Positions 1 through 33,229 of a DNA stretch of 64,000 bases are shown here, one piece after another. Position numbers and translations under genes: made by a program. The notes beneath the pieces were generated by a model, which was given only the letters and a program-made list of their open reading frames with translations, was not told where the DNA came from and did no database searches. This stretch comes from an uncultured cyanobacterium (GTDB lineage: Bacteria; Cyanobacteriota; Cyanobacteriia; CAKZMO01): NCBI GenBank assembly GCA_963719515.1, contig CAVRCJ010000011.1, positions 192,001 through 256,000 on the forward strand. Direction: 5' to 3'. Numbering within the stretch: position 1 is the stretch's first letter; each line of letters begins with the position of its first letter.

Positions 1-1476
1 CTAGCGGCGGAGCTGCTGCTGGGCACGCTGGCCAGCTACCTGGTGGGCAACCAGGCCTTAGCCTACGGTGTCGCGGTGGGCGGCTTCCTGGCGGCCATGG
101 GTCTGGGGGCCTACCTCACCCGCTTCGTGGCCCAAGACGCCTCGCCGTCTCGCCTCCAGGGCATTCTGGTGACGCGCTTTTTCCAGGTCGAGCTGCTAAT
201 TGCCCTGCTCACCGCCCTGCTGCCCCTGGGTCTGTTTGCCCTATTCACCGTCGATGGTCCCCTGTGGCTGGGGCTAGGGCTGGTGACCCTGATGCTGGGC
301 ACCCTGGCCGGGGCGGAAGTGCCGCTGCTGACCCGGCTGATGGAGCGCGACCAGGGCATGCGGGAGGCGCTGTCCGGGGTTTTGGCACTAGACTACATGG
401 GCGGGCTGGCCGGGTCGCTGCTGTTTCCGGTGGTGCTGCTGCCTCTGCTGGGCATGTTTCCGGCGGCGGCGGTGATTGGGGCCTTCCCCGCCTGGATGGT
501 GTATCTCATGGGCGGGGCGTTTCCGGGGATGCGGCGCTGGCGGCGGGGCGGTTTAGCCCTGGGCGTGGGGCTGCTGCTGTTCGCGCCGCTGACGCTGACC
601 GTGAGCAACCGGCTAGAAAACACCCTCTACCAGGCCCCCATCATCAACCGGCAGCAGTCTGCCTACCAGCGCATCGTGCTGACCCGCTACGGCCAAGACG
701 TGCGGCTGTTCCTCGACGGCGACCTGCAAATGTCCACCCTAGACGAATACCGCTACCACGAGGCGCTCATCCATCCGGCGCTGTCCGCCAGCGGCACGCC
801 CCGGCGGGTGCTGCTGCTGGGAGCCGGAGACGGCATGGCCCTGCGGGAGGTGCTCAAATGGCCGGAGGTGGAGCAGGTTCTGATCCTGGAGCTAGACCCG
901 CAGGTGGTGGCGCTGGCCCGCCGCCACCCCGCCCTCCTGCAGGCTAACGGCGGCGCATTCGACGATCCGCGCGTCACCCTGCGCTACGGAGACGCCTTTA
1001 AGCTCATGCGCGATCTGGGCCAGACCTTCGACGTCATCGTCGCCGACTTCCCCGACCCCGACGTAGACGCGATCGCCAAGCTCTACAGCCTGGGCTTCTA
1101 CCGCCAGCTGCGCCAGCGCCTCACCCCCAGCGGCGTCCTGGTCACCCAGGCCTCCAGCCCCTTCTTCGCCCCCAAGGTTTTCGCCTGCATCACCACAACG
1201 CTGGAGGCCGCCGGGTTTCGCACCCACCCCTACACCGTCAGCGTCCCCAGCTTTGGGCCTTGGGGGTTTGTGCTGGCGGAGCCCGAAACCATCGACGCAG
1301 TTGACGTCAGTGCCCTGACCCTCCCCATTCCAACGCAATTTTTAACCCCCTCTCTCTTGCCCGCCCTATTTATACTTCCCGGCGATATTACCTCACAGCC
1401 GGCTCAGGTCAACCGACTGGGCCACCCCGTCATCGTCCGCTACCAAAACGACCCGCGCTGGGCTTTGTATAATTGA
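1..1476 (+). CDS. speE: Membrane-fused polyamine aminopropyltransferase (spermidine synthase-like), 5' end outside the window
   Basis: Frame is open from base 1 (LAAELLLGTLASYLVGNQ...). N-terminal TM helices, then LFLDGDLQ, YHEALIHP, LLLGAGDG, ELDPQVV and DVIVADFPDP motifs. Confidence 0.85.
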   Translation, partial: LAAELLLGTLASYLVGNQALAYGVAVGGFLAAMGLGAYLTRFVAQDASPSRLQGILVTRFFQVELLIALLTALLPLGLFALFTVDGPLWLGLGLVTLMLGTLAGAEVPLLTRLMERDQGMREALSGVLALDYMGGLAGSLLFPVVLLPLLGMFPAAAVIGAFPAWMVYLMGGAFPGMRRWRRGGLALGVGLLLFAPLTLTVSNRLENTLYQAPIINRQQSAYQRIVLTRYGQDVRLFLDGDLQMSTLDEYRYHEALIHPALSASGTPRRVLLLGAGDGMALREVLKWPEVEQVLILELDPQVVALARRHPALLQANGGAFDDPRVTLRYGDAFKLMRDLGQTFDVIVADFPDPDVDAIAKLYSLGFYRQLRQRLTPSGVLVTQASSPFFAPKVFACITTTLEAAGFRTHPYTVSVPSFGPWGFVLAEPETIDAVDVSALTLPIPTQFLTPSLLPALFILPGDITSQPAQVNRLGHPVIVRYQNDPRWALYN

Positions 1477-19062: not shown

Positions 19063-19139
19063 GGTATGTTCCCATCAGGTAAACGCACCGTTGAATATGG
19101 CATTTGGTCAGCGATCGCCTGAATATCCGATAATAAATA

Positions 19140-19292
19140 ATGTCCAACAATGCGGTGCGTTTGCTCTACGCCCGCCCCGACGAGTGGTCCGAGCCTATTC
19201 CGCTGAACGACACCGGCGGCATTCTGCGCGGCCTCACGCCCACCGACGTCATGCGCATCCTCACTAAGCGCATCCCGCTGCCGCCTCGCTAA
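19140..19292 (+). pseudogene. Truncated paralog (C-terminal half) of the 25085..25423 small protein
   Basis: Translates as MSNNAVRLLYARPDEWSEPIPLNDTGGILRGLTPTDVMRILTKRIPLPPR. LRGLTPTDVMRILTKRI is identical in the 25085 gene. Confidence 0.75.
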
Positions 19293-24597: not shown

Positions 24598-24900
24598 ATG
24601 TCTACCTTATCTTCTCAAGAAACCCTTGACCAGCTCAAGCTCTGCTTTCGCTTGACTGAAGAACCCAAAACCCATGCCGAGGCTAAGCAAGCTTTCCAGC
24701 AGGTCCGCGATCGCGTGGCCAACGACTGCCCTGATGCCGTGGAGGTTGTGGAGATGCTGTGGCAAGAATTAATCTCCAGTCGGCGCTCAGCAATTTTCTG
24801 GCAAGAGCTGTCGGACATGGAAAAGAATCTGGGCGAGAAGATGGCGGAGAACCAGATGCAGCTTCGTCAGAACTACAACCGACTGGTGCAAGAACAGTAG
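24598..24900 (+). CDS. Conserved coiled-coil hypothetical protein
   Basis: Helical ORF ending LRQNYNRLVQEQ. GGAG before the ATG at 24598. Confidence 0.65.
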   Translation: MSTLSSQETLDQLKLCFRLTEEPKTHAEAKQAFQQVRDRVANDCPDAVEVVEMLWQELISSRRSAIFWQELSDMEKNLGEKMAENQMQLRQNYNRLVQEQ

Positions 24901-25084
24901 GGTACCGTTGCGAAGCAAACGTACCTCTCTAGCAATCGCGGTTGCGATCAATCGAGAAATTTGGGGCGATCGCCACGCTGACGCCTAGGGCAGTTGCCTT
25001 TCAGCAGAAGTCGGTGGCGATCGCGAAGCCAGTCGGGGCCTCATTGTGCCCTGGCTGGCTTCGTCTATTGGGCCCCCGAAGCGG

Positions 25085-25423
25085 CTAGTCGGAGCGCTGC
25101 GGTAGGGAGATGCGCTTGGTGAGGATGCGCATGACGTCTGTGGGGGTGAGGCCGCGCAGGACGCCGTCGGGGTTGTTCAGGGGCAGGGTCTGGGACCAAT
25201 CGCTGGGATGGGCGTAGCCGAGCTGATGCAGCCGGTCACGGCAGTTGTTGACGGCGTAGAGGGAGCCCACAGCGATGAGGCGCAGGGTGTTGAAGCTGGG
25301 GGTGCGGCCTTTGTCTTCGAGCAGGTAGTCGCCGGTTCTAGGATCGATGTCGAGGGCATTTTGGTGGGCGGCCAAGGCGACGTTGTGGCCTGCGTTGAGC
25401 TGGCCGGAAGGATTGTATGTCAT
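25085..25423 (-). CDS. Small protein of a dispersed cyanobacterial family (copy A)
   Basis: AAGGAG RBS. Motif LRLIAVGS..AV..C..RLHQLGYA....WS...VMRILTKR is shared with 32446..32727 and 19140..19292. Confidence 0.75.
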   Translation of the reverse strand: MTYNPSGQLNAGHNVALAAHQNALDIDPRTGDYLLEDKGRTPSFNTLRLIAVGSLYAVNNCRDRLHQLGYAHPSDWSQTLPLNNPDGVLRGLTPTDVMRILTKRISLPQRSD

Positions 25424-25520
25424 TTGAGGGTTGTCTCCTTTCGTGGGTTAGGAAAGACAACCCAAACGTTTAGCCACCCCGCGAATATGGCGAGGTGGCT
25501 ACCCTGGGATAAAATCCCTG

Positions 25521-25600
25521 TAGCTCTCGCTGGTTGTCTCAGCGGGGGTTAGTCGTCTGGAAGTGGTGGTAACACGACCAGGCGGCGCTAAATATTTGGG
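25521..25600 (+). ncRNA. Predicted cis-antisense sRNA upstream of copy A
   Basis: Follows a TAAAAT -10 box (25510-25515). Two hairpins close only with + strand G:U pairs, and one carries a GUAA (GNRA) loop. Prediction only. Confidence 0.5.
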
Positions 25601-25753
25601 GTGTCGGAGTTAGGACAGCGTGTGATTTGCGTCCATGGCTTGGCATGATAGCGGAGTTTTAGCGCGATCGCAACCATAGGGTGGGAGAAAGTTGGCAAAA
25701 TATTTAGGGTGGCTGGAAGTTTCCTAAGTAGGAACTATATCGTATTTAGCTTC

Positions 25754-26239
25754 TTACCAAAGCTTTTCATCTACTGCCCTCGACCTCGCTTCCATTTGCC
25801 GTACTTTTTCTTCCATACGCTCAAAAGCTGTCATTACGTTGTCAGCCGCTGAATTCCGGGAATACATGTTTAAAGTGGTAAATGAATTTTTATCTTCTAA
25901 AATAGCTATGCTTGGCGCTAGCTTTTCTATTAATGCCGTCAATTCATCATATTGAGGCTTAAGCTCTTCTAAAGCCTTAGAAATCTCTCTTTTCTGAAAT
26001 AGAGCCTGCCGCGCTGTATGTTCATCTCCCCTTTGCAAAGCTACTTGCGCTCTCTGCTTTCATCTGCCAATTTCTAACTCTAACTGTTTGAATTTATTTT
26101 GATACCAAGCTTGGTGATCTATCAGCTTAGTAAGCGCTTGCTTTGCGTTTTGAGTAGTCACTTACATTTCTCCCATTGAAATACTCAGGGCGCTTGAGCA
26201 ATTACCTGTCAACGCCCTATTTATCCTGTTGAAGTGCAT
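25754..26239 (-). pseudogene. PspA/Vipp1(IM30)-like pseudogene
   Basis: One frame reads EM*VTTQNAKQAL...IGR*KQRAQVALQRGDEHTARQAL...AFERMEEKVRQMEARSRA, with in-frame stops at 26162-26164 and 26060-26062. Confidence 0.75.
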
Positions 26240-32445: not shown

Positions 32446-32727
32446 CTAGTGCGGGAGATCGAGGGAGCGCTGCCGCACTAGGTAGCTCAGCACCTGCCCT
32501 TCTTTTTGGGTAATCGTGACGCCGCCTTTGCCGATCGCAATCAGCTGGGTCCAGAGGCTCTGGTCAACGTAGCGTCTGTTGTGCAGCAGATGTATTGCCT
32601 CGCGGACGCCCTCAGGGGAGCCGATGAGAACGTGGCGAATGATTTCGCCGTTGGGTCCGGGCTCGGGGGTGGTCAGCACGGTGGGTGCGGCCTCGGTGGG
32701 AGGCAGCTCGGGGTATAGAAATGTCAT
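32446..32727 (-). CDS. Small protein of a dispersed cyanobacterial family (copy B)
   Basis: IRHVLIGSPEGVREAIHLLHNRRYV....WT...VLSYLVRQR aligns with copy A. Confidence 0.75.
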   Translation of the reverse strand: MTFLYPELPPTEAAPTVLTTPEPGPNGEIIRHVLIGSPEGVREAIHLLHNRRYVDQSLWTQLIAIGKGGVTITQKEGQVLSYLVRQRSLDLPH

Positions 32728-32825
32728 GGGTTTTCTTCTCGTTTAGGTTAGAAAACCCCACAAATTTGGCCATCCCGGACTATGGCGTGTCTAGGATGGC
32801 CTTCTACCACGGTTTAAGATGGCAA

Positions 32826-32915
32826 AAGTCCAAGACAGGGCTTGTCTGTCGCGGGCTAGGGCGCGATCGTCGCTGGAATCGGCGATCGCGTCCGTTGTTG
32901 ACCAAATTTTTGGGG
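32826..32915 (+). ncRNA. Predicted cis-antisense sRNA upstream of copy B
   Basis: Follows a TAAGAT -10 box (32815-32820). Two hairpins with + strand G:U pairs, same layout as at copy A. Prediction only. Confidence 0.45.
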
Positions 32916-33229
32916 ATCAGAGCTAGAAATTAAACAGCTCTAGGAAGAGACAATAGCGTATTCGGGGCTGGGTCGCAAGAGTAGTACAAAAAAATTTATG
33001 CCGCTTGACCCCTTACGCACTTAAAGGGCGCTGCTGATTGATGGGCTGTTTCCCCCTTCGCTGTGCTTGATTGGCTACTCTTTGGCTGCGGGAGGGGGTG
33101 AACGTATAACAGGGGCGATCGCTCGAAGATAGACAAAGGTCGATTGCTTATCATCGGAAAATTGCGTTTGGCGTATAATTTTGACTGGTGAACCAGGATA
33201 TTCACCGATACATCCTTGAAAATTTCCCT

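Follow-up and report, generated by a model that had tools for sequence, protein, structure and literature searches.

On the minus strand of the window, by which we mean the whole stretch of 64,000 nucleotides that was analysed, a gene for a small protein of 112 amino acids (copy A) is preceded by a long leader in which features of both strands are closely packed (Table 1). Taken as a whole, this arrangement is probably best explained as one module made up of a sense promoter, a structured 5' leader of ~200 nt, the small-protein gene and a convergent antisense promoter inside the leader. All elements that a sequence-only reading had pointed out here were recovered at the positions given: the inverted repeat GGGTTGTCT (25428-36) / AGACAACCC (25455-63), which flanks and overlaps the Shine-Dalgarno sequence (SD); the hairpin TAGCCACC (25471-78) / GGTGGCTA (25494-501); the + strand TAAAAT and the two hairpins that follow it; and the long-range stem first described as 25461-74 / 25587-600, which is longer at its full extent (P2). 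The broader proposal of a small-protein gene whose structured leader can occlude the SD is likewise supported, both by the predicted folds and by comparison between copies. Short ORFs of 35-36 aa were also seen within the leader, where the compensatory changes at paired positions speak for RNA structure.

Table 1. Features of the copy A locus, in window coordinates.
Feature	Position	Strand	Basis or remark
CDS, 112-aa small protein, copy A	25085..25423	-	Open-reading-frame list
SD-sequestering hairpin	25428..25463	-	Pairing read off the sequence, 14 bp in copy A
Anti-SD arm and P2 base GGGUUGUCUUUCCU, paired with AGGAGACAACCC (contains the SD)	25450-63 with 25428-39	-
SD	25435-39	-	ctcct as + strand letters
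Multi-helix junction domain of the sense leader	25456..25605	-	Closed by P2; holds P3, P4, P5/P5a and P6
P2, long-range stem	5' arm 25587-25605, 3' arm 25456-25474	-
P1, optional 5' hairpin of the sense leader	25613..25634	-	MFE fold; covariation among paralogs
Sense promoter TTGCGA-17-TATCAT	25645..25673	-	Promoter scan
Putative antisense -10 box TAAAAT	25510..25515	+	At the apex of sense hairpin P5a (25506-25518)
as-P4 extended, first predicted antisense hairpin	25521..25551	+	13 bp including G:U; loop UUGUC
as-P3, second predicted antisense hairpin	25552..25586	+	9-bp stem, two U:G pairs, internal loop, inner GUG/CAC stem
Possible antisense RNA 3' region GCUAAAUAUUUGGG	25587..25600	+	U-rich; complements the upper P2 5' arm

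The copy A protein combines a variable N-terminus with a conserved C-terminal domain at about residues 44-106 (LRLIAVGSLYAVNNCRDRLHQLGYAHPSDWS..PL..DVMRILTKR). A tblastn search of the source genome gave 26 paralog matches, a profile search of the same genome identified 77 open frames of the family, and 772 representatives were present in a library of 1.84 billion proteins. AF2 modelled residues 40-112 as a beta-alpha-beta core with a pLDDT of 89, the full-length protein reaching a pLDDT of 65. No Pfam or NCBIfam family matched the copy A protein above the curated cut-off, no protein-family profile matched five diverse members apart from one spurious match at E 0.23, PADLOC returned no family for 16 members, and a sequence profile search of the PDB gave no match. 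Foldseek found no match at E <= 0.001 for the full-length model (best VIA Z 4.8) and none for the domain model; the fold matches of the latter (best Z 4.3) were generic split beta-alpha-beta arrangements (E2 DNA-binding domain, ribosomal proteins, CutA1/PII, MinE) and were rejected as a guide to fold or function. In the ESM Atlas the protein met unnamed cyanobacterial clusters only, and its named homologs, one of them in Leptolyngbya iicbica LK, are always annotated as hypothetical protein. The small protein is an uncharacterised cyanobacterial family, and the earlier statement that the locus could not be assigned to a named family agrees with the outcome of the Rfam, Pfam, NCBIfam, PADLOC and PDB searches.

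Type I toxins are usually small hydrophobic membrane-active peptides, with exceptions that include SymE and RalR. The 112-aa protein is not of that usual kind: its longest hydrophobic run spans ~12 residues (LRLIAVGSLYAV), and its sequence contains no hydrophobic stretch of membrane-spanning length. A type I toxin-antitoxin label for the module would be an analogy.

The leaders come in two related classes of ~200 nt, A and B, and copy A belongs to class A, which is represented in the source genome by 16 strong and 2 divergent copies. Of the 77 family frames, class A leaders precede 18 and class B leaders 45, the remaining 14 having neither, so that 63/77 have a leader of either class; seen from the RNA side, 18/18 class A and 44/47 class B leaders of this genome lie upstream of a family frame. 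In other genomes the conserved protein domain was found directly downstream of the RNA in 25 of 31 loci, the other six being contig ends, a remnant, or cases in which the script picked a different frame. The covariance model R1, which describes the architecture of the paralog (class A) leaders and was built from a shortened rather than a full-length alignment, matches 13 of the 17 genomes of the order and 35 of the 151 sampled genomes of the cyanobacterial class. Rfam 15 gave no match at the gathering threshold across the whole window; at E <= 10, positions 24900-25900 yielded two sub-threshold matches, both outside the leader (rli38, E 4.2; S4-Bacteroidia, E 5.9). The literature searched held no description of the leader RNA or of the protein family. 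These results point to an RNA family and a protein family that are both undescribed.

The predicted fold of the 220-nt sense leader has an energy of -74.7 kcal/mol (z = -5.14), and none of 200 shuffles folds as well. MFE folds of 16 paralog leaders yield a common architecture. Across 51 leaders, 87% of the cells are paired, compared to 33-46% in slid controls, and double changes occur in 44 of the 50 pairs, values reached by none of 500 shuffles; these counts come from paralogs and relatives and are therefore not independent events, and the model to which alignment A6 was fitted had itself been derived from the sense structure. P1 covaries among the paralogs; neither strand is preferred in class A, and the sense strand is favoured in 38/44 class B leaders. 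The hairpin is absent in some genera, since the -10 element there ends 7-9 nt before P2. The scan for a sense promoter returned one site at the locus against 0.3 expected, and a TTGnnn-16..18-TAnnnT arrangement lies upstream of 49/51 leaders.

Wobble pairs are divided between the two strands in a helix-specific manner. Counted on the gene strand of the 51 leaders, the ratio of G:U to A:C is 86:24 in P2, 22:7 in P5, 18:2 in P5a and 47:4 in P6, in contrast to 0:10 in P4. The seven annotated pairs of P3 comprise 309 Watson-Crick cells, 48 A:C cells, and not a single G:U or other mismatch on this strand; among the 23 distinct P3 helices, 18 contain A:C and none contains G:U. In terms of stability, P3 is favoured on the antisense strand in 51/51 leaders (-21.9 vs -15.9 kcal/mol), as is the extended as-P4 in 49/51 (-18.0 vs -11.1 kcal/mol), the MFE structures of the extended P4 containing 145 G:U among 667 pairs on the antisense strand vs 8 among 484 on the sense strand; conversely, the sense strand is more stable for P5 in 44/51 and for P6 in 46/51 leaders. 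Six hold-out loci from other families agree on all three features, including the -10 box and the as-P4 preference (6/6). Class B leaders favour the antisense strand for P3 in 36/44 (the sense strand in 8/44) and for the extended P4 in 43/44, and their P6 preference is reversed, with the antisense strand favoured in 36/44. The comparison supports a partition in which wobble is mainly gene-strand in P2, P5, P5a and P6 of class A and opposite-strand in P3 and the extended P4. Protonation could in principle allow the A:C mismatches to act as wobble pairs in the sense RNA. The sequence-only reading had stated that the two + strand hairpins close fully on that strand only, which is true for copy A and extends to the whole family.

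The antisense-specific helices start just downstream of a -10-like hexamer that occupies the aligned place in 51/51 leaders, with A at position 2, T at position 6 and variation at positions 3-5 (TAnnnT in 41/51, [CA]ATAAT in 10/51); class B leaders carry TAnnnT in 32/44 and nA(n)AAT variants in 12/44. No recognisable -35 element was found for this antisense promoter; promoters consisting of a -10 element only have been described for cyanobacteria (PMC4181335). The + strand segment 25521-25605 folds as exactly two hairpins at -38.6 kcal/mol (z = -5.11), and none of 200 shuffles is as good. A terminator scan of the locus gave none for the antisense RNA, and the alignment shows U-runs after as-P3 in some relatives (U7 in L103; U5 in L102 and L104). 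Together, these observations support a predicted cis-antisense RNA of ~65-80 nt with two hairpins, starting near 25521, and the earlier suggestion of a + strand RNA starting there gains comparative backing from the 51/51 -10 box and the antisense-only wobble in P3 and P4. The GUAA tetraloop noted in copy A is indeed present there and is not conserved: the apical loops of P3 differ, and the antisense hairpin loops in general differ from copy to copy. The most conserved 'unpaired' nucleotides of the sense leader (CTAACC, GGCTA and GATTTTATC) appear to owe their conservation largely to the arms of the antisense hairpins and to the -10 box.

A convergent promoter could also act without a functional transcript, cutting sense transcription by collision or occlusion. 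The two predicted promoters do face each other at a distance of ~130 bp, and because no antisense terminator was found, the antisense transcript may run into the sense promoter. Such transcriptional interference needs no RNA structure, however, whereas both antisense hairpins have been kept by antisense-specific wobble and compensatory changes across families, and we regard interference as the only function as quite improbable. We give even less credence to a + strand RNA that works independently of the leader it overlaps, either as a trans-acting sRNA or in another role, for example as a partner of the encoded protein. Its long stable hairpins begin at the predicted 5' end, as they do in many stable sRNAs, but the RNA always accompanies the gene (see the linkage counts above), and loops that vary between copies are hard to reconcile with one trans target common to all.

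The 3' arm of P2 complements both the P2 5' arm and the flank of the SD, so that P2 and the long SD-sequestering hairpin are mutually exclusive. This three-way complementarity covaries across lineages, occurring as GACAxCCC/GGGTTGTC/GACAACCC, CAGAAC/GTTCTGG/CCAGAAC and AGCGC/GCGCT/AGCG. The cognate sequestor duplex reaches -18.5 kcal/mol in copy A and is at or below -14 kcal/mol in 26/43 leaders, the sequestor of the other 17/43 being a short anti-SD helix only; the mean is -13.5 kcal/mol for cognate vs -9.7 kcal/mol for non-cognate duplexes. In class B an anti-SD/SD helix with compensatory changes is predicted as well. In thermodynamic modelling, opening the SD was computed to cost 4.8 kcal/mol with the leader free and 10.3 kcal/mol with it blocked over the stretch that runs from the 5' arm of P2 through that of P5; this block raised the cost in 41/43 leaders, by more than 3 kcal/mol in 35 of them. 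Blocking P3 to the P5 5' arm, with the P2 5' arm left free, changed the computed cost from 4.8 to 5.7 kcal/mol, with an increase in 28/43 leaders and a decrease in 2.

A switch between P2 and the SD sequestor would be a workable expression platform in the sense RNA by itself. The leader might accordingly be a purely sense-strand, riboswitch-like sensor of a metabolite, of temperature or of the encoded protein, which sets the P2/sequestor balance, the + strand features having no RNA function. The gene-strand-specific G:U pairs of P2, P5, P5a and P6, the succession of a multi-helix junction and an anti-SD element, and the covarying three-way complementarity are all in keeping with such a sensor. 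The composition of P3 (A:C without a single G:U or other mismatch on the gene strand), the closure of the extended P4 on the antisense strand only in 49/51 leaders and the failure of any Rfam family to match speak against it, and because the conserved unpaired nucleotides are accounted for by the antisense arms and the -10 box, little is left for a ligand pocket. We therefore rate the sense-only explanation as unlikely.

For the copy A module we favour, as the probable account, refolding between P2 and the SD sequestor that is driven by the antisense RNA. The predicted + strand RNA would pair with the 5' half of the leader, that is with the P5 5' arm, P4, P3 and the upper P2 5' arm. This pairing would disrupt P2 and set free the P2 3' arm, which could then form the long hairpin that locks the SD and turns translation off; decay triggered by the duplex may add to the repression. 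Where the antisense RNA is lacking, P2 would form and leave a weak 6-bp anti-SD hairpin, so that the gene would be translatable. The variable hairpin loops would keep the antisense RNA of each paralog private to its own mRNA.

The sequence-only reading had proposed a more direct logic, that of a type I locus in which the antisense loop GGUUGUCUC pairs with the RBS region GAGACAACC and blocks the ribosome. The 9-nt match on which this was based is real in copy A, where GGTTGTCTC occurs twice on the + strand (25429-37 and 25532-40); a 9-mer match is improbable by chance, the copy A duplex (-18.2 kcal/mol) ranks third of the 43 in its row, and the match recurs in one non-orthologous leader (L033). 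It does not hold for the family, however, being confined to 2/43 leaders, and L042, the closest homolog of copy A, has a different loop. Duplex means are -8.9 kcal/mol for cognate vs -8.1 kcal/mol for non-cognate combinations, and the expected covariation between loop and RBS did not appear (longest shared word, 4.33 cognate vs 4.17 non-cognate). The protein, moreover, has no hydrophobic stretch long enough to span a membrane, unlike most type I toxins. Pairing of the loop with the RBS is not a conserved recognition mechanism, and we consider the direct model very improbable. The likeness to the C4 RNA of phages P1/P7, which had been suggested alongside it, was not borne out either: the candidate RNA is encoded opposite its presumed target and has a putative promoter of its own, and no Rfam match was obtained. 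C4 RNA is cut out of the very transcript that carries its target, on the same strand, which makes it a poor model for the module.

Cis-antisense regulation is thought to be common in cyanobacteria, and we know of few cases there whose mechanism has been worked out; the present locus offers one that sequence comparison by itself can reveal. Within one stretch of 150 nt, separate strand-specific structural constraints act on both strands, and three-way complementarity ties an upstream stem to the ribosome-binding site. Its dozens of copies per genome and its spread over many cyanobacterial families make the module a source of natural compensatory mutants for testing.

Elements of the proposed mechanism are familiar from other antisense systems. 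In the plasmid systems CopA/CopT (R1) and Inc RNA/repZ (ColIb-P9), which control replication initiator genes, a short stem-loop antisense RNA targets hairpins of the leader that lie well before the RBS, and translation is blocked indirectly through altered leader pairing, by way of a leader peptide or an activator pseudoknot. The mode proposed here would be alike in its indirect block via leader pairing, but the competing structures are P2 and the SD sequestor and the genes are chromosomal and multi-copy. The Ibs/Sib and SymE/SymR loci of E. coli are paralogous loci with private antisense RNAs, whose specificity lies in variable regions; these RNAs overlap the coding region or the RBS, the copy numbers are single-digit, and SymE is a soluble type I toxin of ~113 aa. 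Multi-copy paralogs with proposed private antisense RNAs are the shared trait, copy number in our case exceeding 60 per genome; no homology to SymE was detected, as Pfam gave no match.

Another such system is AapA1/IsoA1 of Helicobacter pylori (PMC5416894), where a cis-encoded antisense RNA likewise lies opposite the toxin gene and folding of the mRNA impedes translation, two stem-loops serving for kissing and extended-duplex formation; related loci are reported in Helicobacter and Campylobacter genomes. AapA1 is a 30-aa peptide that needs 3' processing of its mRNA, whereas the proteins of the present family have 76-140 aa and a predicted beta-alpha-beta domain, with no processing implied. The predicted antisense RNA here also differs from IsoA1 in lacking overlap with the SD and in its >60 copies per genome, and no sequence or Rfam relationship exists. 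The literature searched contained only one other cyanobacterial type I candidate, in Microcystis. This system, msoT1/msoA1 of Microcystis aeruginosa, shares with the present one its cyanobacterial origin and a cis-antisense RNA predicted as two hairpins; MsoT1, however, has 63 aa and two predicted membrane helices, and the region paired by its antisense RNA comprises the 3' UTR together with the 3' end of the CDS (PMC12390103); the system is unrelated to the module in sequence and layout.

The tight control of the protein suggests a costly or toxic activity, and the double lock together with the copy number invites the speculation that uncontrolled expression would be harmful, by analogy with type I toxin-antitoxin systems. 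Were the proteins toxins, they would constitute a further large candidate for a type I-like system in cyanobacteria. It is possible, though we hold this only tentatively, that the modules form a new and very large antisense-gated gene class of filamentous cyanobacteria, type I-like, with a soluble alpha/beta toxin and private two-hairpin antisense RNAs, in which the RBS is locked by refolding and is not covered by the antisense RNA. Should this be true, it would represent an unusually large set of cis-antisense-controlled paralogs in one genome and a widespread RNA family absent from Rfam.

Finally, no neighbouring gene was common to more than 4 of 22 loci. Inspection by eye showed Uma2-like, TnpB-like, TPR, TIR-like, ABC-transporter-like and D1-like proteins among the neighbours, and in a check for mobile-element boundaries the two most similar copies were found to lie in a shared segmental duplication that exceeds the size of the module.

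Copy A, the minus-strand gene of a 112-aa protein together with its folded upstream leader, is best read as a module in which an antisense-gated leader that sequesters the Shine-Dalgarno sequence (SD) would control a novel small protein. The window is cyanobacterial, with many GCGATCGC and with named homologs from Elainellaceae. The sequence-only reading had described an inverted repeat around the SD, a long-range stem, a hairpin TAGCCACC/GGTGGCTA, a TAAAAT hexamer, two hairpins on the + strand and a duplicated 9-mer (GGTTGTCTC); these were all recovered from the sequence at the positions given, and the + strand hairpins also by folding. The observation is confirmed and greatly extended; its interpretation is partly supported. 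The 220-nt sense leader folds at -74.7 kcal/mol (z = -5.14) and the + strand of 25521-25605 forms exactly two hairpins at -38.6 kcal/mol (z = -5.11), with 0/200 shuffles folding as well in either case. The sense promoter of copy A is closely preceded by a 94-aa ORF of coiled-coil-like sequence.

Coordinates of the features of copy A and of related elements in the window
Feature	Positions	Strand	Remarks
112-aa ORF of copy A	25085-25423	-	real open frame
Inverted repeat around the SD	25428-36 with 25455-63		
9-mer, two occurrences	25429-37 and 25532-40		
Long-range stem	25461-74 with 25587-600		can be extended to 25456-74 with 25587-605
TAAAAT	25510-15	+	
Two antisense hairpins	25521-51 and 25552-86	+	
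Sense promoter of copy A	25673-25645	-	TTGCGA-17-TATCAT; canonical, promoter scan
94-aa ORF	25754-26038	-	
3' fragment of family gene	19137-19289	+	leaderless, 51 codons
Gene of second family member	32449-32742	-	second protein subfamily (MTFLYPELP...IIRHVLIGSPEGVREAIHLLHNRRY...)
Class B leader of that gene	~32743-32981		promoter TTGCGA-17-TATTGT, P1, P2, P3, antisense TAAGAT box, anti-SD UUUUCU

Each minimum-free-energy (MFE) fold of the 16 paralogous leaders of the copy A type (class A) gave the same architecture, consisting of an optional 5' hairpin (P1) and a long-range stem (P2) around a junction of P3, P4, P5 (with P5a) and P6, followed by an anti-SD. In A6, an alignment of 51 leaders, 87% of the cells are paired, compared to 33-46% with partners slid, and changes on both sides occur in 44/50 pairs, values that 0/500 shuffles reach, although these figures overstate independence because the alignment was fitted to R1, the covariance model of the leader core (164 positions, 50 pairs), and its rows are relatives. 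For 21 leaders of a second related type (class B), RNAalifold independently predicted P2, P3, P4, P6 and the anti-SD/SD helix, with double changes in 15/34 pairs.

The 3' arm of P2 runs straight into the anti-SD and is complementary both to the P2 5' arm and to the SD flank. The three covary between lineages (GACAxCCC/GGGTTGTC/GACAACCC; CAGAAC/GTTCTGG/CCAGAAC; AGCGC/GCGCT/AGCG), and the class B counterpart is UUUUCU/AGAAAA versus GACUCC/GGAGUC. The sequestor, the long hairpin hiding the SD, has 14 bp in copy A (GGGUUGUCUUUCCU/AGGAGACAACCC); among the 43 leaders with recognisable SD and start codon, its duplex reaches -14 kcal/mol or lower in 26, the other 17 having the short anti-SD helix only. 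In constrained folding of these leaders, opening the SD cost 4.8 kcal/mol with nothing blocked and 5.7 kcal/mol when the stretch spanning P3 to the P5 5' arm was blocked (up in 28/43, down in two); blocking the P2 5' arm as well brought the cost to 10.3 kcal/mol (up in 41/43, with a rise above 3 kcal/mol in 35). Since the two results differ, the strength of the predicted effect depends on the extent of the putative antisense RNA.

The main result is the division of the leader structure between the two strands. An A:C mismatch on one strand is a G:U pair on the other. On the gene strand of the 51 leaders, G:U and A:C were counted as 86:24 in P2, 22:7 in P5, 18:2 in P5a and 47:4 in P6; P3 comprised 309 Watson-Crick cells, 48 A:C, no G:U and no other mismatch, and P4 had ten A:C and no G:U. 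Counting only the 23 distinct P3 helices, A:C was present in 18 and G:U in none. Folding energies, a comparison independent of pair annotation, favoured the antisense strand for P3 in 51/51 leaders (-21.9 vs -15.9 kcal/mol) and the sense strand for P5 in 44/51 and P6 in 46/51, with no strand preference for P1. The P4 hairpin of the antisense strand extends to 12-16 bp, its arms being formed by the conserved CTAACC and GGCTA; the extended form is more stable on that strand in 49/51 leaders, and its MFE structures hold 145 G:U among 667 pairs there versus 8 among 484 for the sense strand. The strand pattern agreed in all six hold-out loci, which come from other families and had not been used for R1. 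In class B the antisense strand is favoured for P3 in 36/44 leaders and for extended P4 in 43/44; P6 also favours it there (36/44), contrary to class A.

At the apex of P5a, the antisense strand reads TAnnnT in 41/51 leaders (TAAAAT, TACAAT, TAAGAT, TATGAT, TATACT or TACCAT) and [CA]ATAAT in the other ten, so that A at position 2 and T at position 6 are invariant and positions 3-5 vary. Such a pattern characterises a -10 box, not an RNA loop; the hexamer is a putative antisense -10 box. It closely precedes the first antisense hairpin, which in copy A begins at 25521-22, 6-7 nt past the box. No -35 element was found for this putative promoter; -10-only promoters have been described in cyanobacteria (PMC4181335). 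The sense promoter pattern of copy A recurs upstream of 49/51 leaders. A scan at copy A found no terminator for the predicted antisense RNA, and U-runs follow the second antisense hairpin in some relatives.

It had been proposed from the sequence that a hairpin loop recognises the ribosome-binding site (RBS). Copy A does have the 9-mer common to P4 loop and RBS flank, which may matter for copy A itself, but loop/RBS pairing was rejected as the mechanism of the family, as only 2/43 leaders have the shared 9-mer (the window copy and leader L033) and cognate and non-cognate pairs are alike (mean longest shared word 4.33 vs 4.17; duplex -8.9 vs -8.1 kcal/mol). The combination of P3 and P4 loops differs among all 16 class A paralogs (A2, an earlier paralog alignment, by eye), which would fit private antisense/mRNA pairs, and would also fit drift.

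In the plasmid systems CopA/CopT and Inc RNA/repZ, antisense binding far upstream alters the pairing options of the RBS region, and the predicted module would follow the same idea. Among the published systems consulted, AapA1/IsoA1 is the nearest in mechanism: there the SD is hidden by mRNA folding and a cis-antisense RNA forms a duplex via two stem-loops (PMC5416894). The literature searched yielded a single cyanobacterial type I candidate, msoT1/msoA1, which is unrelated to the module (PMC12390103), and no description of the module was found in that literature. The toxin in type I toxin-antitoxin systems is usually a hydrophobic peptide; the copy A protein sequence has no hydrophobic run of membrane-spanning length, and membership of the module is not established. 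Toxicity of the protein is a guess, made because its control is tight. Family proteins have a variable N-terminus and a conserved C-terminal domain of ~60 residues, modelled as beta-alpha-(turn)-beta (pLDDT 89). Sequence searches of Pfam, NCBIfam, PADLOC and PDB gave no family match, and fold searches only generic split beta-alpha-beta similarities (Z <= 4.8).

In the source genome, tblastn found 26 paralog matches of the copy A protein and a family profile search 77 open frames. Conservation of the DNA itself among paralogs covers about 250 nt upstream of the gene, and no neighbour gene was common to the loci compared; the unit is promoter, leader and gene. Iterated nhmmer found 16 full-length and two partial class A leaders. 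R1 had 23 matches, the weak ones upstream of a second, distantly similar protein subfamily. To this subfamily belongs a second window member, probably the "copy B" of the sequence-only reading, whose leader has the same layout as class A and two A:C mismatches on the gene strand of P3; R1 with default filters (E <= 10) did not match it. Used as nhmmer query, this leader identified 47 class B leaders, 44 of them full length. By frame, 63/77 have a leader (18 class A, 45 class B) and 14 have neither; no family frame lies downstream of three of the class B leaders or of one partial class A match (C11:319555-319667). The fragment on the + strand of the window, 68% identical over its last 44 residues and located immediately behind the stop codon of the preceding gene, is probably a remnant of a family gene. 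The pair of class A copies with the highest similarity (C8:41687-42299 and C14:276100-276710) lies within a segmental duplication, at least 1.7 kb long, that reaches past the module on both sides and carries an indel of ~555 nt, estimated from the offset of two aligned blocks.

On the best reading, the source genome carries more than 60 copies of the module, which has a wide distribution among filamentous cyanobacteria. R1 matched 13/17 genomes of the order, up to 37 times per genome, and 35/151 genomes sampled from the class, over nine family labels. The protein profile matched 51/401 genomes sampled from the phylum, and 772 representatives (E <= 0.001) in a library of 1.84 billion proteins, named homologs all being "hypothetical protein". 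The conserved protein domain lies immediately downstream of the RNA in 25/31 loci from other genomes, the remaining six being contig ends, one remnant and two loci where the script chose another frame. In some distant lineages, which were judged Nostocales-like and Microcoleus-like, the family protein stands behind a different, short leader. In five such leaders from Nostocales-like genomes of other families (L091, L092, L095, L099, L100), each with a canonical promoter, one or two GGCGATCGCC...GGCGATCGCC hairpins replace the large junction domain. In one relative (L040:1389-1567) a leader joins straight onto the final 12 codons of a family gene (MRILTKRIPLPR), and this locus is a deletion remnant.
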